Origin: a virus | Strand: one strand, 5' to 3' | Length of the DNA stretch: 64,000 nt | IMG/VR virus record: IMGVR_UViG_3300037086_000398 | Coordinates: 4,362 to 68,361 of that record | Shown: piece after piece, positions 3,789 to 57,173 of the stretch | Position numbering within the stretch: position 1 is the stretch's first letter | Layout of the letters: each line of letters opens with the position of its first letter | Position numbers and translations under genes: made by a program | Notes under the pieces: model-generated | Database searches by the model: none | Told to the model about the DNA's origin: nothing | The model's input: the letters and a program-made list of their open reading frames with translations, nothing else

Positions 3789-3960
3789 AGAAATATGGGC
3801 CGCCCAAATAGCTAATGCTCTTCTCAGTGGTAGAACATGTGATGCATGTGCTTTTGGTGTTCATCTAGGAATTGGATCCTATTGTTCAAAGCAAGGAGAT
3901 CATTTCTACACAAAAGTGCCATATGGCAGGACTTGTAAAAAATGGACACTGTACAGATAG
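3781..3960 (+). CDS. SCR-family small Cys4 protein
   Basis: 'IANALLSGRTCDAC..C...RTCKKW'. Confidence 0.65.
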   Translation: MNKEIWAAQIANALLSGRTCDACAFGVHLGIGSYCSKQGDHFYTKVPYGRTCKKWTLYR

Positions 3961-4100
3961 CCAAGGCTCTTCTTGAAGGCAAGGGTTGTGATACATGTAA
4001 ACATGCTTATTACGACGTTTTAGGATTTCTCTGCAAACATCAAGGTCAATATGATTTTAGCAGACCAGATACTGGAACTTGCAAAGAGTGGGAAAGATGA
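3942..4100 (+). CDS. SCR-family small Cys4 protein (52 aa)
   Basis: 'IAKALLEGKGCDTC..C...GTCKEWER'; this is below the 60-aa ORF-track cutoff and was found by hand. Stop overlaps the next start (ATGA). Confidence 0.65.
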   Translation: MDTVQIAKALLEGKGCDTCKHAYYDVLGFLCKHQGQYDFSRPDTGTCKEWER

Positions 4101-4366
4101 AAACTAATGAGATAGCCAAAAGGCTTCTCGAAGAAAAAGGTTGCAAAGATTGTACCTATGCAATCAACTGTAATTTTCGTAAGAAAGACAAATCTCTTGT
4201 TACGTGTGAAAGATGGGTGAAGTTTAAAGAAGGGGTGTTCCCAATGGCCCCTGCAGAAGACAAGATCTACTATCAAAAACTAGTTTATAGGAATGGAGAT
4301 GGAAAAAGACAATCTAGACAAACTAGCAAAAAATCTCCTCGAAGAAAAGATTTGCCGAGTTTGTGA
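4097..4366 (+). CDS. SCR-family small Cys4 protein
   Basis: 'IAKRLLEEKGCKDC..C...VTCERW'. Confidence 0.6.
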   Translation: MKTNEIAKRLLEEKGCKDCTYAINCNFRKKDKSLVTCERWVKFKEGVFPMAPAEDKIYYQKLVYRNGDGKRQSRQTSKKSPRRKDLPSL

Positions 4367-4610
4367 AAACTCTCGAGGCAAACATTGTATCCTCAACACA
4401 AAAGAGAGTAGGTTTGCTTTTTCAGAAGAGGGCACGTGTGAACTGTGGAAAGAAAAAGATAAAATGACTCGGGACAGAATCAAAACTATGGGAGAGGAGG
4501 CAACTCTTTTGATGGATGTGGCTGATAAGATTTTGGAACAATATAAGAAGGAAGAAAAAGAAAGACAAAATGGACAATCAGATTTGGAAAGTAGCAAAAG
4601 AACTTCTTGA
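4293..4610 (+). CDS. SCR-family small Cys4 protein with charged C-terminal tail
   Basis: 'LAKNLLEEKICRVC..C...GTCELW' followed by a Lys/Glu-rich tail. Confidence 0.6.
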   Translation: MEMEKDNLDKLAKNLLEEKICRVCENSRGKHCILNTKESRFAFSEEGTCELWKEKDKMTRDRIKTMGEEATLLMDVADKILEQYKKEEKERQNGQSDLESSKRTS

Positions 4611-4878
4611 AGGAAAAATCGAAGTCACTTATGACGGCGCATATCCTAACTCATGTTCTGGTACTCTCACCATCACGATCAATGATCAGATCATTTATGA
4701 AAAGCATGGCTGTTGTCACTCAACCGGTAGTGTAAGCTTTACTCCAGACTGGGAAGAGATTGTCGATAGTAGTGGCAGTTTGATTTGGGATGATGCCGAC
4801 AAGGCTAATGACAGGGTCAGAGAAGCTGTCGAAAAGGTTCTCTCTGGAATCAATGTCTGCTGTGGAGGATGTGTTTAG
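4570..4878 (+). CDS. chimeric protein: SCR-family N-terminal helix joined to a different Cys-rich C-terminal domain
   Basis: 'MDNQIWKVAKELLEGK' is followed by 'YDGAYPNSCSG...HGCCHSTG...INVCCGGCV'. The family CxxC/TCxxW pattern is absent. Confidence 0.45.
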   Translation: MDNQIWKVAKELLEGKIEVTYDGAYPNSCSGTLTITINDQIIYEKHGCCHSTGSVSFTPDWEEIVDSSGSLIWDDADKANDRVREAVEKVLSGINVCCGGCV

Positions 4879-4907: not shown

Positions 4908-5489
4908 ATGGACCGAATAGACTGCTACATGATTTTGGGCATATCATCTGAGGCTTCCGCCGAGGACATCAAGTCTGCCTATAGGCAGAAGGCTATTCAA
5001 TTCCATCCTGATCACAATCCCGATAAAGCAGCCACCGAGATGTTCAAGCGTCTCACAGAAGCCTACAATGCTTTGATGGGGGTGACTTCTGTAAAGAGGG
5101 AAACTTCTCAATCTCGTCCGACTCAGTCAAAATATGAATCATATGATGAAGAGAAGGAACAAGACTACGACTATGATGATGGTTGGGTGAAGGGGAAGAG
5201 GTGGAACCCCAATCAATCTTCTTCCAAAAAGAAACACTACGAGAAATACACTCAGCCCAATGAACCAACTGCCACCCTTGCATGCAAAGCCAGCGTGGGT
5301 TCTTTTCATCGAGATCTTTACAGAAACCGACTTCTGGCTCTGAGAGCCAATCTCAAGGATTTTGATCCAAAGGGAACGATGACTTGGGATGAAGATTGGC
5401 GAACTCTCATATCGTATTTTTCCATCAAGATCGTCACAAAAGAGAGTCTCTGTCGCGCTTTCGACAAAGTAATGAAGAGCTGGGTCTAG
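4908..5489 (+). CDS. J-domain protein (DnaJ-like co-chaperone, J domain only)
   Basis: 'DCYMILGISSEASAEDIKSAYRQKAIQFHPDHNP' contains the canonical HPD J-domain motif. Confidence 0.7.
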   Translation: MDRIDCYMILGISSEASAEDIKSAYRQKAIQFHPDHNPDKAATEMFKRLTEAYNALMGVTSVKRETSQSRPTQSKYESYDEEKEQDYDYDDGWVKGKRWNPNQSSSKKKHYEKYTQPNEPTATLACKASVGSFHRDLYRNRLLALRANLKDFDPKGTMTWDEDWRTLISYFSIKIVTKESLCRAFDKVMKSWV

Positions 5490-5532
5490 AGGGGCATTTT
5501 AGAGCAATTGCTCCAAAGCATATAATCTCTAT

Positions 5533-5835
5533 ATGGAAACAAACGAAGCAGTCGAGATGCTCCAATCCAAGATGAATGCTGGAGAAGGTGATCAGCGCGG
5601 AGACATGAAGCTTCCGATGCAAATAGGGGCTCTCAACCGCAGGAATCTCCGTTTCGCTCTTGAAAATCTGAAGGATGATATTGAGGCCGAGGATCTTGAG
5701 TGTTCCGTCTCGATCATAGAAAACAAAAGCCTGATCAGCTCTCTTTTCTGGGTCAAGCTTCACAATGCCACGGTGAGAGTGATGCTCGCCACTTCTCTTT
5801 CGATTGTCGATTTCGTTGATCGCTACAACAGCTAA
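5533..5835 (+). CDS. hypothetical protein
   Basis: ORF in the prevailing + orientation; an antisense ORF at 5434-5892 competes with it. Confidence 0.3.
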   Translation: METNEAVEMLQSKMNAGEGDQRGDMKLPMQIGALNRRNLRFALENLKDDIEAEDLECSVSIIENKSLISSLFWVKLHNATVRVMLATSLSIVDFVDRYNS

Positions 5836-5846
5836 AGGAGAAAATA

Positions 5847-6263
5847 ATGGGTTGGAAACAACAGATTCCTTGGGACAAGTATACTTGGGCAATGTATGCT
5901 GCGGGCGACAAAGATGGTCACTGGCAGATGTTCCGAGACGAGCCTCTTTGTGACGAGTGGAAGGGTTTTTGGTGGCATTCCATATTCGATCCGAAGACTG
6001 TCAACGAAGCCGATCTCACCGTCAAGATTCCATATACTGGTGACTGGAAGAACTCTCTGACCGTCCGTCCTGGAATGGAAGAGAAGCTCGGCAAGAAAAT
6101 CGCCAAAGCTCAAGCTGTTCGTGAGGCTGCAAGAGCCAAGGAAGATGCAGAGCAGAAGGCCATACTCAAGAGTGACGAGAAAGAGACTGTCACAAAGGTG
6201 GTCGATGCCTCGTTGGAACAGCCTCCCAAGCGGAAGCGTGGCCGACCTCGGAAGGTAAAGTAG
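5847..6263 (+). CDS. hypothetical protein with C-terminal AT-hook-like basic tail
   Basis: Trp-rich N-terminus; C-terminus '...PPKRKRGRPRKVK' has the GRP AT-hook motif. Confidence 0.45.
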   Translation: MGWKQQIPWDKYTWAMYAAGDKDGHWQMFRDEPLCDEWKGFWWHSIFDPKTVNEADLTVKIPYTGDWKNSLTVRPGMEEKLGKKIAKAQAVREAARAKEDAEQKAILKSDEKETVTKVVDASLEQPPKRKRGRPRKVK

Positions 6264-6273
6264 GGAGGGTCAG

Positions 6274-6480
6274 ATGAAACTCTTTTTGGCGGACATTTAC
6301 TACACAGAACGTTGGTATGAATCGAACGAGGAGAAGAAGCACCACGCCATCCATCTAGTCAAGGCTGAGAACGAAGACCAGGCGAAGGAAAAGGCTGAGC
6401 GCTTCATCGAAGCCAAGACCAGTGCGTATAGCGTCTACTACGACGTGGTCTCGTGTGTCGTCACGGAGACGATTGAGTGA
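6274..6480 (+). CDS. hypothetical protein
   Basis: 68-aa ORF in + orientation. Confidence 0.3.
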   Translation: MKLFLADIYYTERWYESNEEKKHHAIHLVKAENEDQAKEKAERFIEAKTSAYSVYYDVVSCVVTETIE

Positions 6481-6643
6481 TGTGGATGAAGACTCTCAAA
6501 GCTTGGATGGAACGCAGAAAGCAGAAGAAACAGAGTATTAAAGCTTTCAATGGGGTTCGTCAAGCCAGAGAGTTCAACGAAAAGCTTCTTGAGTTATCTC
6601 GGCAAGAACGAGAACGCTCAGAATATGAACAGTGATCATAATA

Positions 6644-6667
6644 GCCCCTCGAAAGAGGGGTTTTTTA
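6644..6667 (+). terminator. rho-independent terminator (CCCCTC-GAAA-GAGGGG family)
   Basis: Hairpin cccctc/gaaa/gagggg followed by TTTTTT. Confidence 0.7.
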
Positions 6668-6758
6668 TTTCTGCGGTGCAAGCATCTGCTTGCGGCATGA
6701 GCATATTTCATCACATAATAAGCTACCGTAAAGGTGCTAAAAGAAGAAGGAGTTAAGA

Positions 6759-6917
6759 ATGGCAACGAAGAAGATTACTGGAGTTTCCTACGAGTCCGCT
6801 CGCGAGATGTGGCGCGCGCGCCCGACGATCAATGGTCGCAGGGTGCATCTGGGCTACTTCACCTCGGAGCGCAAGGCCATCGCCGCCGTCCGCGCGGGCC
6901 TCACCAACACTCGCTAA
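6759..6917 (+). CDS. small AP2-domain DNA-binding protein (52 aa) on a GC-rich island
   Basis: 'GVSYESAREMWRARPTINGRRVHLGYFTSERKAIAAVRAGL' resembles the AP2 beta-sheet motif. GC content is far above the surrounding sequence, and terminators flank it on both sides. Confidence 0.5.
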   Translation: MATKKITGVSYESAREMWRARPTINGRRVHLGYFTSERKAIAAVRAGLTNTR

Positions 6918-6941
6918 TCGCAGCGAGTATCTTTCCTTCCA

Positions 6942-6971
6942 GGGCTGAGAGTTCCTCTCAGCCCTTTTTTG
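6942..6971 (+). terminator. rho-independent terminator
   Basis: Hairpin 'gggctgagag-ttcc-tctcagccc' followed by TTTTTT. Confidence 0.65.
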
Positions 6972-7011
6972 TCTAACGTGTATTTTTCCGGCAGGCATAT
7001 TTCATTCAGAG

Positions 7012-7236
7012 GTGAGTATGATCTTTCATCGACACAAATACGATAAGGTTCAGAACGATGGCTATCAATATTGCACTAAGTGTGGCAGAGCCATTCTCGC
7101 TCCATGCAATCACAAATGGAAACTCATCCATGACATCAAAATGGACGGGTGGGACCCCTCTGGTACGATGTGGATTTTCAAGAAAGTATATGAGTGTGAA
7201 ACGTGCCACGCCGTCAGAACTGAGACCATTGTGTGA
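7012..7236 (+). CDS. small zinc-ribbon protein
   Basis: 'CTKCGRA...CNHKW...CETCHAV' gives paired CxxC motifs. Confidence 0.45.
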   Translation: MSMIFHRHKYDKVQNDGYQYCTKCGRAILAPCNHKWKLIHDIKMDGWDPSGTMWIFKKVYECETCHAVRTETIV

Positions 7237-7418
7237 AAGACACTACACCAAGAAAACTCTTTGATATCTCTTGTTTCATTTCTGCTGGAGGTATTATAGC
7301 TCTCGGTGTGCTTACTATTATCTTCCATTTCTCCCTCTTCTATCTAGCAATTCCACTTGTACTTCCGGCAGTATTAGTAATGAGTATGGTTTTATACGCT
7401 TGGTTCAAATCAAGCTGA
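7233..7418 (+). CDS. small membrane protein
   Basis: Two hydrophobic helices; ATGA-coupled. Confidence 0.35.
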   Translation: MKDTTPRKLFDISCFISAGGIIALGVLTIIFHFSLFYLAIPLVLPAVLVMSMVLYAWFKSS

Positions 7419-7429
7419 AGGAGAGTGAT

Positions 7430-7714
7430 ATGTTGCTTACTACTATGGATGAAAAATTAAAGATTCAAAAGATCAAGGAGATCATTGATGATGGTGTTAT
7501 TTTTGCCTATGATGATAGGGCTGAAAGGATCTATGGAGTCATCACCGACAGAAGCAGTCACTATGATTTACATCCTCTCACTAAGTTGAGTATGCTTGTT
7601 GAAGAGCTCGAAGATTCACTTGAAAGAAATCATGATTCTCCAAGAGATTTTTTGAACGATTCAACAAGACGGCTACAGTTGATCAGAGAAGAACTAGAAA
7701 AACAGGGAGTATGA
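7430..7714 (+). CDS. hypothetical protein
   Basis: ORF 7271-7714 with an internal Met at 7430 after 'ggagagtgat'. Confidence 0.3.
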   Translation: MLLTTMDEKLKIQKIKEIIDDGVIFAYDDRAERIYGVITDRSSHYDLHPLTKLSMLVEELEDSLERNHDSPRDFLNDSTRRLQLIREELEKQGV

Positions 7715-7715
7715 A

Positions 7716-8081
7716 ATGAGTATGAAAGACATTGTTTTTGGGTCCTATAAGAGGTTGCAAGGATGGATTATTTTCTGTTGTGTCTTGTGTCTTCTTGTAG
7801 GATTTGTTTTTGGGCTTCTGTTTCCAATACCCAAAGTAGCCTTAGTTCCAAAAACAGCTCCAACGATCTTGGTGGAACAAACAGATGTTCCTTTCACTGT
7901 CGATTCGATAGGATTTTTTGATAGTTTCAATGCAGACGGCTGGAACCTTTCTCATTATAGAGACACTGAGAGATGGCGTATAATGGTATTTGTCAACGAC
8001 AATGTGACTATTCAGTATTCAGAGAAGTCATGGAATGCTTTGATAAAGGATTTGAAGGAGACAAAGTGGCCAGAAAGGTAA
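7716..8081 (+). CDS. membrane-anchored hypothetical protein
   Basis: N-terminal transmembrane helix 'WIIFCCVLCLLVGFVFGLLF'. Confidence 0.35.
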   Translation: MSMKDIVFGSYKRLQGWIIFCCVLCLLVGFVFGLLFPIPKVALVPKTAPTILVEQTDVPFTVDSIGFFDSFNADGWNLSHYRDTERWRIMVFVNDNVTIQYSEKSWNALIKDLKETKWPER

Positions 8082-9052
8082 TCTATCGAATAAAAATTGG
8101 ATCCGCCATGTATGGTCTGATGCATGCTGATTCTGACACAGATTACATGGAAGTATTCCTTCCGTCTCCTGAAGAGGTGCTTGGCCTTCATCCAATCGAC
8201 GAGGTAGACAATTCCACCAAGTCTTCTGGTTCTGAGACAAGGAACACCCCTGAAGATGTTGATGACAAGTCTTACTCTTATGCAAAGTATCTCCACATGT
8301 TGCTTGGAAACAACCCCAACATCGTTGAGACTATTTTCGCCAGAGACGACAATGTTCTCACTTCATCTGGAGACATTCAGGAACTTCTGATTCATCCTGA
8401 GAGAATCGTCTCCCAGAGAATCTCCAACAAGTTTTTTGGCTACGCCCTGTCTCAGAAGGCGAAGTTGAACGAGAAGTACAACCGGTATGAGTCGCTCAAA
8501 ACTGGTCTTGCTGAGATGGAAAAGATTTACGAACAGGCTCTTGGAAGACATTACGCCATTGACGAGATAGATTCAATTACTCTCAACAAGTTGCTAAAGT
8601 ACTACAAAAGTGGTCGTCAGCATGTGGAACGGTTCCACAAGGGACTCGACCTTGATATGATTCACGACCATGTGAAAAGTGAATTCGAGAACTATGGATG
8701 GAGAGTGAAGACCGATTCTTTCGAGAAGCTGCACTACGATCTGAAAAATGGATACCACACAATTCGTATCCTTGGCGAAGGAATCATCCTTCTAAAGACT
8801 GGTCACCTTGAGTATCCGATCTCTGGAAAACTTAGGGAAGACATTTTGGCCATTAGGGCTGGTACTGTCGAACTTGACCATCTTTACGAAATGTTCGATT
8901 CCTATAAAGTAGAATACGATAGGGCCGTCGAGGCCTGTACTCTTCGAAAGGATCCGGATTATGATTGGGCAAATAAGCTTCTTGTGGATGCTATGCAGCG
9001 CCACATTATAGATCAGACGGATGATGCTCTCATAAGAGCAATCAAACATTGA
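8030..9052 (+). CDS. predicted nucleotidyltransferase (Pol-beta superfamily, RlaP-like)
   Basis: 'IGSAMYGLMHADSDTDYMEVF' matches the hG[GS]x(9-13)DhD nucleotidyltransferase signature; start is approximate. Confidence 0.5.
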   Translation: MECFDKGFEGDKVARKVIYRIKIGSAMYGLMHADSDTDYMEVFLPSPEEVLGLHPIDEVDNSTKSSGSETRNTPEDVDDKSYSYAKYLHMLLGNNPNIVETIFARDDNVLTSSGDIQELLIHPERIVSQRISNKFFGYALSQKAKLNEKYNRYESLKTGLAEMEKIYEQALGRHYAIDEIDSITLNKLLKYYKSGRQHVERFHKGLDLDMIHDHVKSEFENYGWRVKTDSFEKLHYDLKNGYHTIRILGEGIILLKTGHLEYPISGKLREDILAIRAGTVELDHLYEMFDSYKVEYDRAVEACTLRKDPDYDWANKLLVDAMQRHIIDQTDDALIRAIKH

Positions 9053-11253: not shown

Positions 11254-12360
11254 ATGACAAAAAGGGATTACTACGAAGTTTTAGGCATTGATAAAACAGC
11301 TTCTAAAGACGATATCAAAAAGGCCTATAGAAAATTAGCCCTCCAGTTCCATCCGGATAGAAACCAAGACAAACAAGCCGAAGAACAATTCAAAGAAGCC
11401 ACAGAGGCCTATGATATTCTCATGGATTCTGGCAAGCGGGCTCAATATGATCAATTTGGTTTTGGTGGATTGAATCAGAATGGATTCCGTCCAAATCCAC
11501 AAAACTATCGTGGATTTGAAGACATTTTTGGTGGCATGCCGTTTAATGATTTTTTCAATCGAGCATGGGGTGGAGAAAACCCATTTAACAGTTTCTTTGG
11601 TGGTGGAATCCCAAAACAGAATAGAGTTCTTGTTGGAGCTGATGCTCAATACCGTCTCAATTTCGAATTAAAAGACGTTCTTCACGAAAAGAAAATAGAG
11701 TTCGATTTTCCAAGAAAAGAGATTTGTGACACGTGTCATGGTAATGGAATAGCTTCAGACGGCAAAGAAACAATGTGTCCAGCGTGTGGTGGTAGAGGAC
11801 GTATCAGAACCAAACAACAAGGATTCTTTGTCATGGAAATGGGATGCCAGAGATGTGGTGGAACAGGTATGACCATTGACAAGCCTTGCCATACATGCAA
11901 GGGCGAGAAGTTAGTATTAAAAACAAAAACCGTCAAGATCAGGATTCCTTCAGGAATTAGTGATGGGGCAACTCTGAAGCTCAACGGTGAGGGACATCAG
12001 AGTCCAAATGGTGGCCCTTCTGGTGATTTATATATAACCGTAAAAGTAAAATCTCATCCTCACTTTAAGCGTCAGGGAAACTCTCTTCATTGCATTGCTG
12101 AGGTTCCATTTGTTCAAGCAATTTTAGGAGATACAATTCCATTGGTTTGGATAGATGATACAACATTGCTTATTGTTGTTCCTTCTAACACTAAAAATGG
12201 AGAAGTCATAAAAATACCCGGAAAGGGCATTGCTGGAGACACTCTCTTTATCAATGTCATAATCAAAATGCCTAAGACCCTGACAGACAGTCAGAAGCAG
12301 GCCATTAAATCACTGAATCTTGAAAAAGATGTCAGTATGCAGCTCAAGGAGATAAGCTGA
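11254..12360 (+). CDS. dnaJ: DnaJ (Hsp40) chaperone, full-length type I
   Basis: J domain with HPD ('LALQFHPDRN'), a Gly/Phe-rich linker, four CxxCxGxG zinc-finger repeats ('CDTCHGNG', 'CPACGGRG', 'CQRCGGTG', 'CHTCKGEK'), and a C-terminal domain. Confidence 0.85.
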   Translation: MTKRDYYEVLGIDKTASKDDIKKAYRKLALQFHPDRNQDKQAEEQFKEATEAYDILMDSGKRAQYDQFGFGGLNQNGFRPNPQNYRGFEDIFGGMPFNDFFNRAWGGENPFNSFFGGGIPKQNRVLVGADAQYRLNFELKDVLHEKKIEFDFPRKEICDTCHGNGIASDGKETMCPACGGRGRIRTKQQGFFVMEMGCQRCGGTGMTIDKPCHTCKGEKLVLKTKTVKIRIPSGISDGATLKLNGEGHQSPNGGPSGDLYITVKVKSHPHFKRQGNSLHCIAEVPFVQAILGDTIPLVWIDDTTLLIVVPSNTKNGEVIKIPGKGIAGDTLFINVIIKMPKTLTDSQKQAIKSLNLEKDVSMQLKEIS

Positions 12361-17103: not shown

Positions 17104-19110
17104 ATGGAATTTCAATTCTTAGGTCTTACCGTCGGGACTGTTAAGAAAGAGCAAAATCTAAACCAAAAAAAAGCTGAAAAGATTCAGGATTACCTGAACC
17201 GTTTCAAAATCACTTCTAGAGATCTAGACAGTTCTGAAGCAAGAAAATACGCAGCAAATATGACTTCTCCTTGGCAGGGGTATTCCTGGGTTCAGGACAT
17301 CACTGATCTCACGAATAGCAGACCTGTCAGATATAGAGATTATAGAGAAATGTGTAGAGTTCCTGAACTCAATCAGGGACTCAATATTTACGCCGATAAT
17401 GCAACCCAATCAGACATTAACAACAATGTTCTTCAAATTGAATCAGACAACAACAAAGTAGTAGAAATACTCGAGCGACTTTTCTTTGAGAGACTCGACA
17501 TTAATGCCCAATTGTGGAATTGGACAAGAAATATGTGCAAACTGGGAGACGAATTTCTCGAAGTCGTACCAGATAATTTAGCAAAACCACGACATATTGT
17601 TGCAATTGAGAGGATTCGAAGACCAGAAAGATTGGAGAGAGTTGAGAAGGACGGCAATCTAGAAAAATTCACCTACACTTTTGATGAGGATGAATCACAT
17701 AAGAAGCAGGGTGATTTCCAACCATGGCAAGTGGTTCATCTCCTTATAGATGACGATGATTTGCATCCATATGGCCGCTCTATTTTTGAGGCTGGAAGAA
17801 AGACTTTCAAAAGATTGACATTAATGGAAGATGCGATGTTGATCTATCGCATTTCTAGAGCTCCAGAAAGAAGAGTGTTTTATATTGATGTTGGAAACCT
17901 TTCCACTAAGGATGCTAATCATTATGTTGAGCAGCTAAAGAGAACTTTCAAGAAGAAGGTCTATGTCAATCCAACTACTGGTGATGTTGATGAAAAAGCA
18001 AACCCATTAGCAGTTGATGAAGACTTTTTTGTTCCAGTGAGAGAAGGATCTACAGGAACAAGAATTGAAACTCTTCCAGCTGGTATGAATCTTGGAGAAA
18101 TTGATGACGTCAAATACTTCAAAGATCAAATCCTTCGAACAATGGGAATTCCATCTTCTTATTTGGGAACTGGTGAAGGTGGTGCAGGATGGGATCCAAA
18201 GAGTTATTTGTCGCATCAAGAAATTCAATTCTCAAGGACAGTTGAAAGAATTCAACGTCACTTGATAAAGGGTCTTGAGAAAGTAGCCATAGTAGAATTG
18301 GTGTTCAGTGGAATTGATGAATCTGAATTCAAGAATTTCAAAATTAAATTGACTCCTCCATCAAATGTAGATCAATTGATGGAAATTGAAGTTCGCAATC
18401 AACAATTTGCACTCATTCAATCAATCAAGGGAATCAGCCCTGATCTTCCTTTCCTCTCTGATGAGTGGATTTATAAGGAAGTGTTGGGATTCAATGATAA
18501 ACAAATCAACCAAATCAAATTGCAAATTCAAATGCAATTGCAGCTCTCTGCACAACTTAAGCAAATGTTTGGTGGGGAAGGGGCTGAAGGTGGTGGAGCT
18601 ATGGGTGGTGGAGGCGGAGCAGCAGGTGGAGTTCCTGGAGTTGCAGGTGGGCCAGAAATGGGTGGAGCTATGGGAGCAGAAGCGGGAGCTGGAGGGGCGG
18701 CTGGGGCTGAAGCAGGTGGAGGAGCAATGGGAGCTGGAGCGGCGGGAGCAGCACCAGGGGGAGCACCTCCGGCGGGTGGAGCACCCCCAGCACCAGGTGG
18801 TGGAGGTCTACAAGTCGCTAGCAGAGATATGGTGAGTTTTGATGGCGGAAAATGGTTGATGGAAAATAAGGGTGACGCAAAAAAACTATTGCAGTATATT
18901 TCATTATACGAAAAAGTAAATAAAGATAAATCTAATAAAAAGCACAGAGTTTATGAGGATAATTCGCTGACCCGAATGACCATTAAGGGTGAATTCAGGG
19001 GTCTATTAAAGGCAACCTCTATAACTAATGGCTCTCCCAAAACATTAAGCGAAGACACTTCTGAAGAAAATCAAAACACATCAAACAGTAATGCTGTACA
19101 GCAGCAGTAA
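17104..19110 (+). CDS. portal protein (T4 gp20-like by synteny) with Gly/Ala-rich low-complexity insert
   Basis: 668 aa, positioned immediately upstream of the protease/scaffold/gp23-like capsid block. Contains a ~90-aa GGAxGA low-complexity segment ('GGEGAEGGGAMGGGGGAAGG...'). Confidence 0.7.
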   Translation: MEFQFLGLTVGTVKKEQNLNQKKAEKIQDYLNRFKITSRDLDSSEARKYAANMTSPWQGYSWVQDITDLTNSRPVRYRDYREMCRVPELNQGLNIYADNATQSDINNNVLQIESDNNKVVEILERLFFERLDINAQLWNWTRNMCKLGDEFLEVVPDNLAKPRHIVAIERIRRPERLERVEKDGNLEKFTYTFDEDESHKKQGDFQPWQVVHLLIDDDDLHPYGRSIFEAGRKTFKRLTLMEDAMLIYRISRAPERRVFYIDVGNLSTKDANHYVEQLKRTFKKKVYVNPTTGDVDEKANPLAVDEDFFVPVREGSTGTRIETLPAGMNLGEIDDVKYFKDQILRTMGIPSSYLGTGEGGAGWDPKSYLSHQEIQFSRTVERIQRHLIKGLEKVAIVELVFSGIDESEFKNFKIKLTPPSNVDQLMEIEVRNQQFALIQSIKGISPDLPFLSDEWIYKEVLGFNDKQINQIKLQIQMQLQLSAQLKQMFGGEGAEGGGAMGGGGGAAGGVPGVAGGPEMGGAMGAEAGAGGAAGAEAGGGAMGAGAAGAAPGGAPPAGGAPPAPGGGGLQVASRDMVSFDGGKWLMENKGDAKKLLQYISLYEKVNKDKSNKKHRVYEDNSLTRMTIKGEFRGLLKATSITNGSPKTLSEDTSEENQNTSNSNAVQQQ

Positions 19111-22250: not shown

Positions 22251-23834
22251 ATGGACATTCAGAAAATGATGATGGAAGAAAGGGAGAAACTGCTAGTTAA
22301 GTGGCAGCCCTTCCTAGAGGGCATTGACAATGATTACATCGCTGGTAACACTGCACTGCTCCTCGAAAATGAGGCCCGCTATTTGGCGGAAGCCCCAACA
22401 CAAGCATCCGACGTTGTCGGTTTGCAAAAGATCATGTTGCCAATCGTAAGACGTGTATTCCCAAATCTTATTGCTAACAACTTGGTCTCAGTACAGCCAA
22501 TTGCTGCCCCAGCCGGAATTATCTTCTACTTGAGATACATCTTCGGAACCCAGAGACCAGGCGTTACGCCAACTGGTGTCGGTGATGAATTCTCTATGTA
22601 TGAGGATACAGCAGGACAGATGGCCGGATACAACCCATGGTATTCAACCGACGAAATCGGACCATACGTTGCCACAGGCGCGAACGTTGCAAACAACGGA
22701 ACAGTCGCCACCCCAGGAGCTGCCGCTCAGTATACTCAGTGGCCACTTGCTGGAAGCAGCGCGTTCTTCGGAACAATTGAAGAGTTGAATGCTGATGGCT
22801 CTGTAGCCGCAGTATTTTCTTTCTCTTTTGACGCCGGATACCCACTTCCTGGCTCAATCAGCCTTGGAAATTTCGGTAATCCATCCAACACAGGTCTTCC
22901 ACTAGCAGTGACTCAGAACAGTCAGTTGCCAGCTGGAACATATCCTGGGTACAACGTCAGACCAGCCGATAAGCTACAGGTTACAACCAATTATACCGTC
23001 TCTGTTGCAAACAACACTGGTATCGTTACAGTAACCAATGCTACCGGTGCTGCAGTTGCAGGTTTGAAGGTTTCAGCTTGGTACAAGACCAACTTGGAAT
23101 ATTCCACTGCAATCCCTGAGATGAAGATCACTATTTCTTCTATCCCAGTAGCAGTAAAGACCCGCAAGCTAAAGGCTATGTGGTCACAGGAATCTGAGCA
23201 AGACTTGAAGGCATATCACGGTCTTTCCGCTGATGCCGAATTGACTGCACTCGTTTCTAACGAAATGATTGCTGAAATCGACCGCGAAATCATCCAGAAG
23301 TGTCTCACAATTGCTCCAGCTACCTCAAGAATGACACACAACTATTCCGCATTTGCCGGAAACAACGTCACTGGAAACTTCCTTGATAGCCACTTGGCAA
23401 TCATGCAGAAGGTAACAGTCCTTTCAAATGAAATCTTCAGAAAGAGCAAGATTGGACCAGCCAACTGGATCGTAACTGGAACCAAGGTTGCATCATATAT
23501 CGAAGTATTGAAGGGATTCATTCCAAATCCAGTAACAGCATCTATGGGCATGAATATCGTAAAAGCAGGCACGTATGCCGGAAAATTCGATATTTATAAG
23601 GACCCAATGTTCCCAGATGATAAGATGTTGATGGGCCACAAGTCTCCAGCTTCTCCATTTGGAGCCGGGTTGGTTTACAGTCCTTATGTTACCAACTTGA
23701 CACCAGTCCTGGTTGGGCAAGATGACTTCAATCCACGCAGAGGATTCCTCGCGAGATATGGATTGACGCAAGTACCTTTTGGACAGTTGTTATATGGGGT
23801 TCTCTCCATTACCAATTTGCCAGGTGCATACTAA
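22251..23834 (+). CDS. major capsid protein, T4 gp23-like
   Basis: 527 aa. 'IVRRVFPNLIANNLVSVQPI' and 'QDLKAYHGLSADAELTALVSNEMIAEIDREI' closely resemble T4 gp23 segments recalled from memory; strong RBS 'agggagg'. Confidence 0.8.
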   Translation: MDIQKMMMEEREKLLVKWQPFLEGIDNDYIAGNTALLLENEARYLAEAPTQASDVVGLQKIMLPIVRRVFPNLIANNLVSVQPIAAPAGIIFYLRYIFGTQRPGVTPTGVGDEFSMYEDTAGQMAGYNPWYSTDEIGPYVATGANVANNGTVATPGAAAQYTQWPLAGSSAFFGTIEELNADGSVAAVFSFSFDAGYPLPGSISLGNFGNPSNTGLPLAVTQNSQLPAGTYPGYNVRPADKLQVTTNYTVSVANNTGIVTVTNATGAAVAGLKVSAWYKTNLEYSTAIPEMKITISSIPVAVKTRKLKAMWSQESEQDLKAYHGLSADAELTALVSNEMIAEIDREIIQKCLTIAPATSRMTHNYSAFAGNNVTGNFLDSHLAIMQKVTVLSNEIFRKSKIGPANWIVTGTKVASYIEVLKGFIPNPVTASMGMNIVKAGTYAGKFDIYKDPMFPDDKMLMGHKSPASPFGAGLVYSPYVTNLTPVLVGQDDFNPRRGFLARYGLTQVPFGQLLYGVLSITNLPGAY

Positions 23835-36188: not shown

Positions 36189-36788
36189 ATGAAGAAGATG
36201 GAATCTGACGGCATTCTGGCAGGGGTTCTAGGAGCAGCAGTTTTCGTTGTCTTCTTCCTTGTCATTGACATTGGAATCGTTTTTTCTCTCCTTCTAGGAG
36301 CTGCCGCATTCATAGGAGGCTTCTTCCTTTTCGAACGAAAGAAACCAGCCGACATCGACAGGGAGAATGATCTCAAGCAGGCCATCGAAATTGGCGATAA
36401 GAACCTTCTCACTATCAAATCTTTGGAGAAGAGAATTCGAAAGGGTCTCGTAGTTTCCAAGGTCAAGGAGATTGACACTATTTTCGAAAGCATCCTTCTT
36501 GACATCAAGAAGGATCCAGCAAAGCTTCACAATTCCAAGCAGTTTCTCGACTATTACGTCCCATCCACTATTAAAATCCTCTCGAAGTACATCGATATTT
36601 CGTCACAGAATGTCAGCAGCACCAGCATCAAGGCGTCCTTGACGAAGGTGGAAGGAATGCTCGACACTATCAGAGACGCGTTTGATGCTCAGCATGCTCG
36701 TATTCTTTCGAATGATGTCATGGATCTCGATACCGAAATCAAAACTCTCGACCAGACTATCAACATGGATGGTCTTGGAAAAGAATGA
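36189..36788 (+). CDS. XpaC-like membrane protein (5-bromo-4-chloroindolyl phosphate hydrolysis protein family)
   Basis: 199 aa with an N-terminal double transmembrane segment and a helical C-terminal domain. Sits immediately upstream of a TelA-like gene, the same pairing as Bacillus yaaN/xpaC. Confidence 0.4.
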   Translation: MKKMESDGILAGVLGAAVFVVFFLVIDIGIVFSLLLGAAAFIGGFFLFERKKPADIDRENDLKQAIEIGDKNLLTIKSLEKRIRKGLVVSKVKEIDTIFESILLDIKKDPAKLHNSKQFLDYYVPSTIKILSKYIDISSQNVSSTSIKASLTKVEGMLDTIRDAFDAQHARILSNDVMDLDTEIKTLDQTINMDGLGKE

Positions 36789-36841
36789 TAGCCTCTTTTC
36801 GAAATAAAAGAGACGTAGCCCAAGATGAAAAGGAGAAAAGG

Positions 36842-37903
36842 ATGAGTGATTCTTCAACAGCACTGGCACCGGTAGATGTGAAAAGTTTATCGAAGCCCGA
36901 TCTTTCAAAGGCTTTGGATTTTGCCAAAGCAATCGACCCGGGAAACACCGGCAACTTGATCCAGTACGGCACTGGAGCACAGAGCAAAATTGCCAGCCTC
37001 GCCGACAACATGCTTACTCAGATCAGGACGAAGGATACGGGCGAGGTCGGAGAAGCTCTCACAGACTTGATGTTCAAGGTGAAGGATGTGGACGTCTCTG
37101 GTCTTACGAAGGACCACAAGGGTCTCTTCGCCAATCTGAAAAACAAGGTCGAACACTTCATGGCGAAGTACGAAAAGCTCGAAACCCAAATCGACCACAT
37201 CATCGACCAGCTCAATAAGAGCAAGATGCAGATGATCACCGACATCAACATGCTCGACCAACTCTACAAGCAGAACCTCGACTACATGCACGGTCTCGAT
37301 CTATACATCGCTGGTGGACAGCTCCGTCTCGAAGAGCTCAAGACCAAGCTTCTGCCCCAGATGCAGGAGAAGGCCAAGGCTTCTGGCACGCCTGAAGACG
37401 CACAGGAGCTCAGTGACTTCAACAACTTCATCTCCCAAGTGGAGAAGAAGCTCTATGATCTCAAGCTGAGCCGGATGATCTCCATCCAGACGGCTCCCCA
37501 GGTCAAGTTGATCCAGGGCGGAGATCAAGTTCTAGTCCAGAAGATTCAGAGCTCCATCATGACGACTATTCCTCTCTGGAAAAACCAGATCGTCATCGCC
37601 ATCTCTCTCTTCAGGCAGAAGAAAGCGTTGGGAGTTGAGAAGGCCGTCACAGACGCCACGAATGATCTTCTCAAGAAGAACTCCGAGCTTCTCCATCAGG
37701 GAACTGTCGAAGTTGCCAAGGAGAATGAGAGGGGCATTGTGGACATCGAGACTCTCGAGCAGACAAACTCTGATCTCATCGCAACGATCGAGGATTGTAT
37801 CCAGATTCAGGAAGAGGGAAAGCAGAAGAGAGCGGCTGCAGAACAGACTCTCATCCAGCTCGAAAGCGATCTCAAGGCGAAGCTCACAGCAGTTCGCAAC
37901 TAA
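36842..37903 (+). CDS. TelA-like toxic-anion-resistance protein
   Basis: '...IQYGTGAQSKIASLADNMLTQIRTKDTGEVGEALTDLM...' matches the TelA/KlaB pattern; ~355 aa coiled-coil; RBS 'aaggagaaaagg'. Confidence 0.55.
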   Translation: MSDSSTALAPVDVKSLSKPDLSKALDFAKAIDPGNTGNLIQYGTGAQSKIASLADNMLTQIRTKDTGEVGEALTDLMFKVKDVDVSGLTKDHKGLFANLKNKVEHFMAKYEKLETQIDHIIDQLNKSKMQMITDINMLDQLYKQNLDYMHGLDLYIAGGQLRLEELKTKLLPQMQEKAKASGTPEDAQELSDFNNFISQVEKKLYDLKLSRMISIQTAPQVKLIQGGDQVLVQKIQSSIMTTIPLWKNQIVIAISLFRQKKALGVEKAVTDATNDLLKKNSELLHQGTVEVAKENERGIVDIETLEQTNSDLIATIEDCIQIQEEGKQKRAAAEQTLIQLESDLKAKLTAVRN

Positions 37904-37958
37904 CAAAGGCATTTGCTTGGCTCTCATATATGAGAGCCAAGAGATTTATCCTAGGAGG

Positions 37959-39629
37959 ATGAAAATGAAGCGTGGTTTGATTGGTGGATTGATTATCGTA
38001 TTAGTCGTAGGTCTGGGACTTGGGTTCAAGTTCATTTTCATGAACAAACCGAACCCTTCTACCAACAGCACTACGGCACAGACAAGTGCGGCTGGACTCA
38101 CTTTCGCGAAGGCAGCTCCCGTTACTCTGCCTCCAGTTGGTGGATACAAGCTGGCAAGTGTGGATCTTGGGGATGGACCCGTTCCTCTCCTCACGATTCC
38201 TCTTGATACTTGGGGCGGATATGCCGCCATCTTTGCTGCAAACGGCGGATTGAAGCCAAACAAGGACAGTCTTTTTTACAAGAAGGGCCACTTCGCAGTT
38301 CAGATTGTCAGCGAAGAGAGCTCTGAGAAGCAGCTTCAGGGATATGCAAGCGGACAGTGGCCGATTATTTGGACCCAGATGGACGCAATGCCTCTGTTCC
38401 TCGACGCTTTCAAGGCTGATAAGCGTGTTTCGCCGAAGACTCTTTTGCTACTCGACTGGAGCGATGGTGGAGACGGAATTCTTTTCCGCAATACCATCAA
38501 ATCTGCCGCAGATCTGAAGGGAAAGATTGTTATCACTTCGAGCAATACTCCATTCAGCTTTATGCTGCTTTGGTATTTGGCTCAGAACGGCCTGACTGGA
38601 AACGACGTTAAGGTTGCTTGGATTGATGATGGTGATAAGGCCCTCAAAGAGTTCAAGAACAACAAAGATGTTGCAGCTTGGGTCAGCTGGACTCCCTACA
38701 TCAACGATGCTGCAGATTCGAGCTCACCGAACTATATTTCTGATGCACACTTGGTCATCTCCTCGAAGGATGCCAATCAGGTTATCGCTGACCTTCTTAT
38801 GGTCAGAAGTGATTTGCTTGCCGACAAACCTCAAATGATGCAGGATTTTGTCGAGGCAGTAATGGAAGGGACTCAACAGATCGGAACTCAGACCTTTAAC
38901 GATATGGCAACCTTCTACAAGGTAAAAGCCGGGGATGCAAAAGACATGCTCACTGATGTGCATATCGCAAACTTTCCTGAGAACAAGATGTTCTTCGATT
39001 CGAATAACTCTATCGGGGCCTACAAGGTGTTCTTGCTTTCTCAGGAATACTACAAGCAACTTGGTGCTCTGGGCGCAGATGCAAGCTATGGACCTGAGAG
39101 GGTTCTTGCTCCCAAGATCATTGCAGCACTCGATAAGAAGGGCATCTTCAACAATCAGAAAAACATGATGGTCAATTCTTTTAACAAGAAGGCCTCATTC
39201 GACATTTCTGATCTTGAGAACCAGAGAGTGGTTCTTACAAACAATGTTGATCTGTTCTTCGAAGCACAGAAACTCGACTTTGATGTCAACAGCTCCAGCC
39301 CTGATATCAAAAATAATATGGTCCTTCTCAGTAAGGTTGCTGAACAGACAAAGTTCCTTGCAACTACTGTTGTCAAGTTGGCTGGGTATCTCGATACCGC
39401 GAAGGTTGCCGATTTCAAGGCTCAGGGCAATCAACAGTTTATCGAGGCAAGCGCTCAGGCGAAGTTGATTTCCAAGAAGAGGGCCGAGTTTATCAAGTCG
39501 GTTCTCGTCAAGAACTTCAGCGTGGACCCTGATCGTATCTTCACTGAAGGAAAGGGATGGGACAACCCGATCTCGGATGACCCGAATAAGAACCGCCGAG
39601 TCGAAGTGCGCTTTATCTCTCTGGAGTAG
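37959..39629 (+). CDS. membrane-anchored protein with periplasmic substrate-binding-like domain and C-terminal OmpA-like domain
   Basis: N-terminal transmembrane 'LIGGLIIVLVVGLGLGF', a central SBP-like region, and a C-terminal 'TEGKGWDNPISDDPNKNRRVEVRFI' OmpA/MotB peptidoglycan-binding motif. RBS 'aggagg'. The track ORF starts at 37635 but overlaps the previous gene. Confidence 0.5.
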   Translation: MKMKRGLIGGLIIVLVVGLGLGFKFIFMNKPNPSTNSTTAQTSAAGLTFAKAAPVTLPPVGGYKLASVDLGDGPVPLLTIPLDTWGGYAAIFAANGGLKPNKDSLFYKKGHFAVQIVSEESSEKQLQGYASGQWPIIWTQMDAMPLFLDAFKADKRVSPKTLLLLDWSDGGDGILFRNTIKSAADLKGKIVITSSNTPFSFMLLWYLAQNGLTGNDVKVAWIDDGDKALKEFKNNKDVAAWVSWTPYINDAADSSSPNYISDAHLVISSKDANQVIADLLMVRSDLLADKPQMMQDFVEAVMEGTQQIGTQTFNDMATFYKVKAGDAKDMLTDVHIANFPENKMFFDSNNSIGAYKVFLLSQEYYKQLGALGADASYGPERVLAPKIIAALDKKGIFNNQKNMMVNSFNKKASFDISDLENQRVVLTNNVDLFFEAQKLDFDVNSSSPDIKNNMVLLSKVAEQTKFLATTVVKLAGYLDTAKVADFKAQGNQQFIEASAQAKLISKKRAEFIKSVLVKNFSVDPDRIFTEGKGWDNPISDDPNKNRRVEVRFISLE

Positions 39630-40471: not shown

Positions 40472-40498
40472 AGCCCCTCGAAAGAGGGGCCTTTTTTC
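40472..40498 (+). terminator. rho-independent terminator (conserved family)
   Basis: 'gcccctc-gaaa-gaggggc' followed by TTTTTT. Confidence 0.75.
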
Positions 40499-40555
40499 AG
40501 AAAAATGTTCGGCCACGGGGCGCACTGACAAGCATATATCTTACAAAAGAATAAA

Positions 40556-40726
40556 ATGGCAAAGCCAAAATTCAAAAACAAAGAAGACATAGAGCGCTGG
40601 CAAGAATTGTGGAATCAATTATTACCCGAAATGAACAGGGCTAATCTAAACTTAGAAGAAAAAGAAGCTTTAGTAGTTCAACAATATTTTGTCAAAAAGT
40701 GGTCTGAAGAACATCCCGCAACTTAG
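40556..40726 (+). CDS. small hypothetical protein (56 aa) between two terminators
   Basis: 'MAKPKFKNKEDIERWQELWNQLLPEMNRANLNLEEKEALVVQQYFVKKWSEEHPAT'. Confidence 0.3.
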   Translation: MAKPKFKNKEDIERWQELWNQLLPEMNRANLNLEEKEALVVQQYFVKKWSEEHPAT

Positions 40727-40742
40727 CTTCAGATTATAAACT

Positions 40743-40766
40743 GCCCCTCAAAAGAGGGGCCTTTTG
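40743..40766 (+). terminator. hairpin of the conserved family (weak T-run)
   Basis: 'gcccctc-aaaa-gaggggc' followed by cTTTTgg. Confidence 0.45.
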
Positions 40767-55187: not shown

Positions 55188-55500
55188 CATTTCGAAGTGT
55201 ACGTTCAACACTGAAAAAACAGATGATCCGAAGCTTGTTGTCTATCTCACATGGATGTGGAAGCCTGGTTACGATCCAAGCGGCCGAGGGTATTTTTCTC
55301 TTAGAGCCATTTCCCTTACAAAAGAACATGCTCGATACGCAAAAGAATCAGCAAAAATTGATTATCCGAATTGCAAGGTCCACGTGGAAGAAAGCATAGC
55401 AGAACATCTCTTTGGAGAAAGCTTCGGCAATTTTCATAGAGCTGATGGTGATGAGCCTCCTAATGGATGGGAGGGTGCTAATATCGAGGAAGAAGATTGA
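55159..55500 (+). CDS. hypothetical protein
   Basis: 113-aa ORF. Confidence 0.3.
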   Translation: MRRATMTNFDISKCTFNTEKTDDPKLVVYLTWMWKPGYDPSGRGYFSLRAISLTKEHARYAKESAKIDYPNCKVHVEESIAEHLFGESFGNFHRADGDEPPNGWEGANIEEED

Positions 55501-57173
55501 GCTCATTGACTGCGGTTTTTCAAACCAAAGAGACGAGACTCACCGACAAAAATTACCTTGGTGAAGGTGGAGAGGGCGTCATCTATCTAAAAGACGGACT
55601 CATCTATAAGATCTATCACGAGAAAAACGATATCATTACTGCACAAAAGCTTGCTGAATTGTCCGTTTTGAAAAGAATCAACATCATTACTCCACTTGGA
55701 CATGTGTATAACTCAAGGGGTTTGCCTATTGGCTACGCAATGAACTTCGTCCAAAATACTTCTCCTCTTGCAAGATTGTTCACAACCAGCTTCCGCAATC
55801 GCAACAACATCACTCCAGAAATGGCAACCAAACTTGTTGAGAAAATGGCTGAAACGATCCATTATATCCATCAAAATGGAATCATCATTGTGGATGGAAA
55901 TGAGTTCAACTATCTCGTCGATGGCACGACTTTCATAATCCCATATTTTATTGACGTAGATAGCTATCAGACAAAATCGTTTCCAGCTAAAGTGATTATG
56001 CCTTCAATTCGAGACTGGCAGTCTAAGATATTCTCTCCTCTTACAGATTGGTATAGTTTTGCGATCGTGGCTACTCAGATCTTTGTTGGTATTCACCCAT
56101 TCAAAGGAAACCATCCAAATTATCCTAAGAATGATTTGAAAGCCCGTCAATTGGCCAATGTCTCCATCTTCAACAAGGAAGTCAGTACTCCACCAGCAAC
56201 AAGGGACTATGGTCTTATTCCTTCAGAATATATGAATTGGTTTGTGGATGTTTTTGAGAAAGGAAAGAGGACTCCGCCACCAACAATCGTTGGTAAGATT
56301 ATCACCAAGGCTCAGCTTGTGATTGAGACGGGTAAGGATAAGTTTGTGATTGAAAAGATTTTCGATGCCGATTCCACAATCACTGGATGTGGTTGGACGT
56401 TTGGAAACAGAATTATGTTCAGTGAGAAAAGCTCTTACATCAATTCTCATAATAAGCCTCTTCCATCCAAGAGTGCTGGAGTCATTTACTTCGACAATAC
56501 TGCCTATCTCATTGATGTGAAGAAAGGCAAACTACTTGTCAGCAATTACAACAATGGACAGGTTTTAAGTGACTCTATTATTGCAGACCGTAAGCTCATC
56601 GTTGACAACAGAATCTATGTCATTAATGACGACAAGTTGATGGAAATCAAGTTTAAGGGAATCAGTGGAAAAATTTTCATCACAACTGGAAACGTATGGA
56701 GCATCCTTCCAAACTCCACCCATGTGTTTCGTGAAATCATCTACTCAGACGTTCTTGGAAAACCCTATTTCTATATCCCCTTCAAGGAAGATGCATGTTC
56801 GATCGTTCAGATTCCTGAACTCGTGAAGCATAAAATAATTGATGCCAAATATGAAAATGGGATCTGCATATTGCTCACATTCGTCAAAAATCTCTACAAT
56901 AGAGTAGTGATCAAGTTCAATCCAGACTTCCAAACATATGCCTTCGAAATGGAATCAGACGTCATTCCATCTGGAATCAACTTCGTCTCTCTTCCAAACA
57001 ACATCTATATGCATTACACTGGAGAAGGAGAGGTTGTGATTGGAAGCAGATTTAAACCAGAAAAGAAGATCTTCTCAGACATCAAGTTTGACAATGACAT
57101 CACCCTCTGCCACAATGGACTCGAGGTTTATTACTACTCAGAAAATACCCTCTACAAAATCAAGGTGAAATGA
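55497..57173 (+). CDS. Ser/Thr protein kinase-like protein
   Basis: Glycine loop 'LGEGGEGVIY', Lys in 'IYKIYHE', a catalytic-loop-like 'IHQNGIIIVDGNEFNYLV', and a DFG-like 'FIDVDSY', followed by a long C-terminal beta-rich region. Confidence 0.5.
   Translation: MSSLTAVFQTKETRLTDKNYLGEGGEGVIYLKDGLIYKIYHEKNDIITAQKLAELSVLKRINIITPLGHVYNSRGLPIGYAMNFVQNTSPLARLFTTSFRNRNNITPEMATKLVEKMAETIHYIHQNGIIIVDGNEFNYLVDGTTFIIPYFIDVDSYQTKSFPAKVIMPSIRDWQSKIFSPLTDWYSFAIVATQIFVGIHPFKGNHPNYPKNDLKARQLANVSIFNKEVSTPPATRDYGLIPSEYMNWFVDVFEKGKRTPPPTIVGKIITKAQLVIETGKDKFVIEKIFDADSTITGCGWTFGNRIMFSEKSSYINSHNKPLPSKSAGVIYFDNTAYLIDVKKGKLLVSNYNNGQVLSDSIIADRKLIVDNRIYVINDDKLMEIKFKGISGKIFITTGNVWSILPNSTHVFREIIYSDVLGKPYFYIPFKEDACSIVQIPELVKHKIIDAKYENGICILLTFVKNLYNRVVIKFNPDFQTYAFEMESDVIPSGINFVSLPNNIYMHYTGEGEVVIGSRFKPEKKIFSDIKFDNDITLCHNGLEVYYYSENTLYKIKVK

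Follow-up and report, generated by a model that had tools for sequence, protein, structure and literature searches.

Two short genes in a 64,000-nucleotide (nt) stretch of viral DNA (IMG/VR record IMGVR_UViG_3300037086_000398, positions 4,362 to 68,361; hereafter the window) depart sharply from the base composition of the genome that carries them. The window belongs to a large T4-like phage with genes for a Gp20-type portal and a Gp23-type capsid protein. One of the two genes encodes a 52-residue protein that consists of an AP2 DNA-binding module; the other, ORF2 (for open reading frame, ORF), encodes a basic protein of 137 amino acids (aa) with a conserved but unannotated domain. We conclude that both are probably moron-type accessory genes, gained by horizontal transfer and inserted in intergenic gaps within variable regions of the phage genome. 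Morons are defined by a promoter and terminator of their own, a deviant GC content and variable presence among related phages (PMC2920897). Such capture is an ordinary and well-known route by which phages gain genes.

In the arrangement that we propose, each gene would form a single-gene unit. After the terminator of the upstream gene would come an element resembling a promoter, then a strong ribosome-binding site ahead of the ORF and an intrinsic terminator behind it, and the next native promoter would take over from there. The excess of GC would be a trace of the codon usage of a donor with at least about 60% GC, with amelioration still incomplete. The elements of the AP2 unit, several of which are kept in related metagenomic contigs (L001 and L002), are as follows (GC3, GC at third codon positions; pI, isoelectric point):

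6643-6662, plus strand: common hairpin (core 6645-6660) and T-run, predicted terminator of the 52-aa gene 6477-6635 and left border of the AP2 unit; -14.6 kcal/mol, z = -3.7
6701-6708, plus strand: promoter-like motif GCATATTT upstream of the AP2 gene; kept in L001 and L002
6747-6752, plus strand: Shine-Dalgarno sequence AAGGAG, 6 nt 5' of the AP2 ATG; kept in L001 and L002
6759-6917, plus strand: AP2 mini-gene, 52 aa, basic (pI 11.6), GC 63%, GC3 0.79-0.80
6941-6965, plus strand: predicted AP2 terminator, 11-bp stem AGGGCTGAGAG-TTC-CTCTCAGCCCT and T-run; -20 kcal/mol
6995-7002, plus strand: GCATATTT motif, proposed restart of transcription for the next gene, 7012/7018-7236

The ORF2 unit and the gene that follows it are laid out in the same way:

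30073-30092, plus strand: common hairpin, predicted terminator of the gene 29729-30064 and left copy of a 21-nt repeat that flanks ORF2
30099-30127, plus strand: sigma-70-like promoter candidate for ORF2, TTTAGA-17-TAGAAT with a TG extended -10, a consensus match only
30138-30143, plus strand: Shine-Dalgarno sequence GGAGGT, 6 nt 5' of the ORF2 ATG
30150-30563, plus strand: ORF2, 137 aa, basic (pI 10.2), GC 59%, GC3 0.84-0.85
30582-30605, plus strand: common hairpin, predicted terminator of ORF2 and right copy of the 21-nt repeat
30670-30677, plus strand: GCATATTT motif upstream of the vault-like gene
30722-33259, plus strand: vault-like gene, 845 aa, with Pfam MVP_shoulder (E = 4.7e-25), Vault_3 and Band_7/SPFH domains

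How foreign are these genes to their surroundings? A first-pass annotation, made from the letters of the window, had described their GC content as far above a backbone of 36%. The backbone value is in fact 41.5%, but the excess is real (63% in the AP2 ORF and 59% in ORF2), and the windowed GC and codon-adaptation analysis that it proposed bears out the contrast. GC3 is about 0.80 in the AP2 gene and about 0.84 in ORF2, against 0.37±0.09 in the 115 other ORFs; the two mini-genes rank as the top two among all 117 (z = 4.5 for AP2 and 5.0 for ORF2). When codon adaptation is scored against the backbone, the AP2 gene ranks last among all ORFs of the window and ORF2 third from last. Seven of the eight arginines in the AP2 protein are encoded by CGC, a codon used for 11% of backbone arginines, where AGA accounts for 45%. 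Likewise, 22 of the 23 lysines of ORF2 are encoded by AAG, and GCC, GTC and CCG are also preferred. All five of these codons (CGC, AAG, GCC, GTC and CCG) are rare in the backbone.

The window also holds a control that separates codon-level foreignness from amino acid composition. GC measured over 150 nt exceeds 0.58 in just three stretches: the AP2 gene, ORF2 and positions 18541-18881. The third encodes a low-complexity Gly/Ala/Pro linker of about 95 aa within the portal gene, and its GC content resides in the first and second codon positions (0.7-0.95), with a GC3 of just 0.23. Amino acid composition alone is therefore not the source of the GC3 signal in the mini-genes. GC is also raised across the entire region 5500-7000, which includes the AP2 gene.

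Both ORFs are present where the first-pass annotation had placed them. It had also raised the possibility that they are untranslated antisense artefacts, and ORFs on the opposite strand are indeed longer: 6753-6998 encodes 81 aa and 30132-30635 encodes 167 aa. These antisense frames have a GC content of 0.67-0.77 at first codon positions and of 0.51 at third positions, the mirror image of the pattern in the plus frames, which GC by codon position fits. The antisense ORFs have no homologues; protein-level conservation and homologues exist for the plus frames only. No tRNA and no Rfam family was found within the window. The strong Shine-Dalgarno sequences 6 nt from each ATG, the codon pattern, the conservation and the homologues together exclude the antisense reading, and by these signs the plus-strand ORFs are real genes and the antisense ORFs are the artefacts. 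We give practically no weight to the idea that the two genes are non-coding or antisense by-products of a GC-rich stretch. Neither has a paralogue within the window.

The hairpins that surround these genes were at first taken for possible insertion hot spots or ends of small mobile units. The common hairpin, CCCCTCGAAAGAGGGG (CCCCTC-GAAA-GAGGGG), occurs in six exact copies, two with one mismatch and a weaker one with two mismatches, where none is expected by chance. Each of its eight common copies lies 0-26 nt past a stop codon or separates convergent genes, with a T-run after it, and folds with an energy of -14 to -19 kcal/mol. Copies are also found after the vault-like gene and after a gene with a VWA domain. 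Two copies surround a 56-aa gene of native composition (40556-40726, 36% GC), with the motif GCATATAT between them; this stretch (40474-40759) has the layout of ORF2 without the foreign composition. Hairpins that follow native genes and bracket a mini-gene of 36% GC are best seen as generic intrinsic terminators. By sequence and position, then, CCCCTCGAAAGAGGGG is the standard rho-independent terminator of this phage rather than a transposon-like end.

The claim that both genes sit between copies of this hairpin holds for ORF2: a 21-nt stretch of the hairpin is repeated perfectly, in direct orientation, on either side of it, with copies 511 nt apart. It does not hold for the AP2 gene, which has the common hairpin upstream only. 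The hairpin downstream of the AP2 gene (6941-6965) is unlike the common one and occurs once in the window. In L001 its stem carries paired changes (CTGAGAG/CTCTCAG versus CTGGGG/CCCCAG) that preserve pairing. The upstream hairpin (6643-6662) is kept in both L001 and L002, and in L002 it directly follows a 138-aa gene.

The motif GCATATWT is probably a lineage-specific promoter element. It has 18 sites on the plus strand and one on the minus strand, with 3.4 expected, and the distance to the downstream start codon, where one is evident, is about 12-58 nt. The plus-strand sites include those at 2958, 6701, 6995, 9616, 23964, 30670, 43332, 46679, 51510 and 61924. The relative L028 has a leader similar to that of the vault-like gene; together with the GCATATTT motif at 30670-30677, this places ORF2 upstream of what would be a native promoter. 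Strings resembling CATATAT or GCATATA also precede genes in the relatives L004 and L028. GCATATWT stands 5' of the AP2 gene, of the gene that follows it and of the vault-like gene, while the element 5' of ORF2 is the sigma-70-like candidate with an extended -10; in the units that we propose, these would serve as promoters.

What does the AP2 gene encode? The first-pass annotation had recognized an AP2-type domain, and profile comparisons agree. Six PHROG families of HNH endonucleases (PHROG 99 and five others) match the 52-aa protein across their AP2 segment, with a best E-value of 1e-9. In an hhalign comparison, the protein aligns with residues 107-154 of the HNH_3 and AP2 endonuclease of Salmonella phage f18SE (47 residues, 38% identity, E = 2e-6). 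The Pfam AP2 model (PF00847) matches it with E = 1.8e-5 and 25.4 bits, and matches its two orthologues with 26.0 and 27.8 bits; the gathering cutoff of 33.3 bits is not reached in any of the three cases. A tblastn search of GenBank phages found weak matches to HNH endonucleases only, and a sequence search of the PDB found no match. As judged from these homologies, the protein is an AP2 DNA-binding module that stands alone, of the sort usually fused to HNH homing endonucleases. It shares the AP2 module with the endonucleases of phage f18SE and PHROG 99; unlike them, it is the DNA-binding module alone.

The orthologues of this protein, 92% and 88% identical to it, were found in a word-indexed protein search and lie on two short metagenomic contigs, L001 and L002. 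Scans of IMG/VR with the AP2 alignment, the 74-aa neighbour and the RlaP-like gene found nothing. The window, L001 and L002 share the AP2 unit in synteny, at a synonymous divergence (dS) of 0.22-0.49. All three copies have a GC content of 60-63% and a GC3 of 0.69-0.79, while their flanks are at about 0.44; the relatives do not carry the gene with backbone-like composition, an outcome that would have spoken against a foreign origin. For the AP2 gene, synteny and GC richness across three lineages at this divergence run counter to the recent transfer suggested at first. Pairwise ratios of nonsynonymous to synonymous divergence (dN/dS) are 0.14-0.16 across the three lineages. Purifying selection maintains the protein, which most likely recognizes specific DNA sequences and acts as a regulator or repressor.

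Could the gene instead lack a function and be what remains of an HNH-AP2 homing endonuclease in decay? Orthologues aside, its closest relatives are the AP2 modules found within HNH endonucleases, and it lies at a recombination junction (described below), as is common for nuclease genes (PMC10448857). But a dN/dS of about 0.15 over three lineages, a conserved promoter motif, Shine-Dalgarno sequence and terminator, and paired changes in the terminator stem are not what decay would leave. Nor is there an HNH remnant: the 52 residues are all AP2, the intergenic flanks are about 100 nt long, and no HNH-like ORF lies nearby. We judge the remnant explanation to be the least probable of those that accept the two ORFs as genes. 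Activity as a homing endonuclease is ruled out because the protein has no HNH nuclease domain. The CasPR anti-CRISPR repressors, which combine a CapR domain with AP2 (bioRxiv 10.64898/2026.02.23.707548), are likewise phage AP2-domain proteins that plausibly bind specific DNA sequences. The protein described here is not one of these; it lacks cysteine altogether and with it the cysteine-rich CapR zinc finger. It is also much smaller and comes from another group of phages, and no link to cas genes was seen. A possible operator, the 7-mer CTACCGT upstream of both the AP2 gene and the vault-like gene, was dropped, as its five occurrences in the window are likely due to chance. A minimal AP2 module of 52 aa bears on how such domains leave homing endonucleases and become regulators.

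ORF2 belongs to a family that we consider the most novel element of this work. Residues 9-97, approximately, form a conserved domain of about 85 aa in which C60, H63, C86 and C89 are invariant in the family alignment; the protein fits the family motif NG-AG...TG...QAG...C-x2-H...P-x2-W-C-x2-C. AlphaFold models most of the domain with confidence (predicted local distance difference test, pLDDT, of 81-97 in 10-residue blocks). The C-H-C-C set is a putative zinc site, and from its features the protein most likely binds nucleic acid. The remaining residues, 98-137, make up a 40-aa tail with 8 Lys, 8 Ala, 10 Val and 5 Pro, a net charge of +5 and predicted disorder; similar tails are found in the family members P0021, P0026, P0006 and P0009.

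The label 'histone-H1-like' given to ORF2 in the first-pass annotation fits only this tail. The K/A/V/P-rich last 40 or so residues recall the Lys/Ala/Pro-rich tails of bacterial and eukaryotic H1-like proteins, but the conserved C-H-C-C domain is unrelated to H1. ORF2 has no winged-helix globular domain, and its tail is far shorter and less basic. Assignment to linker histone H1 was rejected on the absence of a match to Pfam Linker_histone, the different predicted fold and the invariant C-H-C-C set. Searches for the domain among Pfam, NCBIfam and annotated PHROG families and among PDB sequences gave no match.

Where else is this family found? A phmmer search of 1.84 billion representative proteins gave 37 matches (E <= 1e-3, 29-43% identity), and a profile search gathered at least 250 proteins, every one of them annotated as hypothetical. 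The few that carry the name of an organism come from Burkholderia, Burkholderiaceae and Sulfuritalea. A tblastn search of GenBank phages found no match, and the word-indexed protein search returned only ORF2 itself. Members occur in a prophage-like region on a contig of 61% GC, on a phage-like contig of 44% GC and in arrays of small phage genes. On the Burkholderia-type contig L106 (1329-7435), the homologue P0063 is clustered with topoisomerase, DUF6876, NinX-like, ArdA antirestriction and UDG-like genes, a gene set of the mobile-element type. These contexts indicate that ORF2 is a member of an uncharacterized family of small proteins borne on mobile elements, and the family, with its 250 or more unannotated members, is a candidate for testing.

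The GC content of family members, compared with that of their flanks, follows the host contig, whereas ORF2 is compared with the window average:

L102: gene 0.64, flanks 0.61
L105: gene 0.46, flanks 0.44
L106: gene 0.69, flanks 0.67
L108: gene 0.60, flanks 0.55
ORF2: gene 0.59, window 0.415

Relatives in genomes of 61-67% GC share the GC3 of ORF2. The idea of a high-GC source put forward at first has thus gained support: some family members, including those on Burkholderia contigs, are native to genomes of 61-67% GC.

The vault-like gene downstream gives a view of the ORF2 locus in relatives. It lies in the same run of plus-strand genes as the capsid gene, about 7 kb downstream of it, and more than 130 related loci are found in metagenomes, IMG/VR and the uncultured huge phages LR756500/501, whose genes encode proteins about 45% identical to it. 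A literature search on vault proteins in huge phages turned up no relevant paper. About 98 loci with a vault-like gene, 80 of them from a metagenome scan, contain neither ORF2, nor its neighbours, nor the hairpin. They include loci whose vault-like proteins are 85%, 79% and 71% identical to that of the window; there, other genes abut the vault-like gene with spacers of 13-60 nt. Absence from these loci, together with the mismatch in GC to the backbone, supports acquisition of ORF2 in this lineage; the donor would have had a GC content of some 60% or higher. Presence and absence at hairpin sites, a comparison proposed in the first-pass annotation, therefore gives a divided answer: ORF2 is missing from some 98 loci, while the AP2 gene is kept in both L001 and L002.

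Around the AP2 gene, two differences between the relatives fall at or next to hairpins. L002 lacks the genes in 6274-6635, which the window and L001 have, and one end of this indel coincides exactly with the 5' limit of the first hairpin (6643-6662). The region in question holds two small genes of 68 and 52 aa that are absent from L002 (L002 1-140); in GC3 the 68-aa gene (6274-6480) ranks third in the window, and it matches phrog_11654, a family without a known function. The second difference is a switch in identity. In a comparison over 6759-7700, identity between L002 and the window is 100% beginning just past the AP2 stop codon. Inside the AP2 gene, L002 is about 82% identical to the window and 92% to L001, and upstream it is again about 82% identical to the window. 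The change from 82% to 100% indicates a recombination junction between the AP2 stop codon and the second terminator (6941-6965). The evidence for mobility is thin, though suggestive: as insertion hot spots the hairpins have one indel edge and one mosaic junction in their favour, each a single case, and as ends of mobile units they fail, being generic terminators that also bracket a native gene of 36% GC.

These observations bear on an alternative in which the GC-rich genes arrive and move as cassettes of the PeSL (promoter-early stem-loop) type, the hairpin and an adjacent promoter providing a substrate for homologous recombination by which small ORFs are gained, lost and exchanged. Shuffling of this kind is known in the hyperplastic regions of T4-type phages (PMC2839356, PMC4122927), and the present phage is T4-like. 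As in PeSLs (PMC2839356), the hairpin has a polyC/polyG stem, and as in the cassettes of T4-type phages (PMC2839356, PMC4122927), repeated stem-loop terminators with G/C tracts stand beside promoters and small ORFans in variable regions. ORF2 lies within a perfect direct repeat, a GCATATWT-type motif (exact or with one mismatch) follows five of the eight hairpins, and the indel edge and mosaic junction in L002 fall at or beside such elements. Yet the identity between hairpin copies extends over only about 21 nt. The motif stands anywhere from 4 to 68 nt from the hairpin and is missing after three of the eight, so that there is no fixed composite of hairpin and promoter, whereas a PeSL joins its stem-loop to an early promoter of sigma-70 consensus and an AT-rich element upstream; the motif here is GCATATWT, with no match to the sigma-70 consensus. 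The 3' hairpin of the AP2 gene is a different sequence, unrelated to the common one, and the common hairpin is missing from relatives whose vault-like gene is 71-85% identical. Circular or excised forms and an empty site were not seen, and the comparative support amounts to one indel and one junction. PeSL-type movement is possible, and we hold it to be clearly less likely than moron-type acquisition. A broader claim, that ORF2 represents a new and widespread family of small zinc-binding mobile-element proteins with a role in anti-defence or host takeover and that this phage clade captures such genes from high-GC donors in the manner of PeSLs, through repeated terminator hairpins, seems to us doubtful when taken as a whole.

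A different objection is that nothing foreign is involved, and that richness in GC3 reflects selection on codons or mRNA in native, highly expressed genes. GC3 is moderately raised elsewhere in the window (0.71 in 6274-6480, 0.48 in the vault-like gene and 0.46 in the major capsid gene), and in both ORFs the GC of the opening 30-60 nt resembles that of the backbone. But core genes that are presumably highly expressed stay far from 0.8 (portal 0.32, capsid 0.46), and the codons used in the two mini-genes are the rarest in the backbone, with the low codon-adaptation indices given above. ORF2, moreover, is lineage-specific, and it shares its GC3 with relatives in high-GC genomes. Selection on native genes is an improbable explanation, on a par with the endonuclease remnant or slightly ahead of it. 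We return, then, to moron-type acquisition. Like phage morons in the concept of Hendrix and Juhala (summarized in PMC2920897), each of the two is a single gene between phage genes, with a predicted promoter and terminator of its own and a deviant composition, and ORF2 is specific to its lineage. The definition of morons, however, comes from temperate lambdoid phages, in which the prophage often expresses them; the phage of the window is large, T4-like and presumably lytic. The classic proof, a relative in which the flanking genes are adjacent, was not obtained.

Several further points weigh against this reading. The relatives that lack ORF2 also differ in the flanking genes, so that none offers an isogenic empty site. 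The AP2 gene is present in all three close relatives compared, with no variation in presence among them. Its Pfam score is below the gathering threshold, and an AlphaFold model built from three sequences is too unreliable (pLDDT 57) to judge the AP2 fold, one helix against a sheet of three beta-strands. The promoter calls are consensus matches only. For ORF2, no donor closer than 39% identity exists among the 1.84 billion representative proteins, and a lysine content of 17% is atypical of a high-GC genome, so that the GC content of the donor cannot be fixed. What the data establish is the composition, the coding status, the homologies and the hairpins as terminators; promoter activity, the binding of DNA and of zinc, and the donor are inferred. 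Of the foreign origin first proposed, the codon-level composition stands; a recent transfer and mobility through the hairpins remain conjecture. Moron-type acquisition, if correct, would make the two genes a clear case in which a large environmental T4-like phage has captured genes and would leave the current picture of phage genome mosaicism unchanged.

The rest of the window is that of a phage with no close relative in culture: a megablast search of GenBank phages with positions 5500-8500 gave no match, and no cultured phage is near at the DNA level. The genes by which it was placed, and a set of accessory genes that is unusual for a phage, are these:

17104-19110: Gp20-type portal
22251-23834: Gp23-type major capsid protein
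4908-5489: J-domain protein
11254-12360: full-length DnaJ
55497-57173: Ser/Thr-kinase-like protein
34059-35372, minus strand: radical-SAM protein
36785-37903: TelA-like protein
37635-39629: OmpA/NMT1-domain protein
7973-9052: RlaP-type nucleotidyltransferase

Finally, four consecutive small ORFs (3942-4100, 4079-4366, 4293-4610 and 4516-4878) share, in their translations, an N-terminal motif resembling IAK.LLE.KGC..C, and may represent a tandem paralogous family of small Cys-containing proteins.

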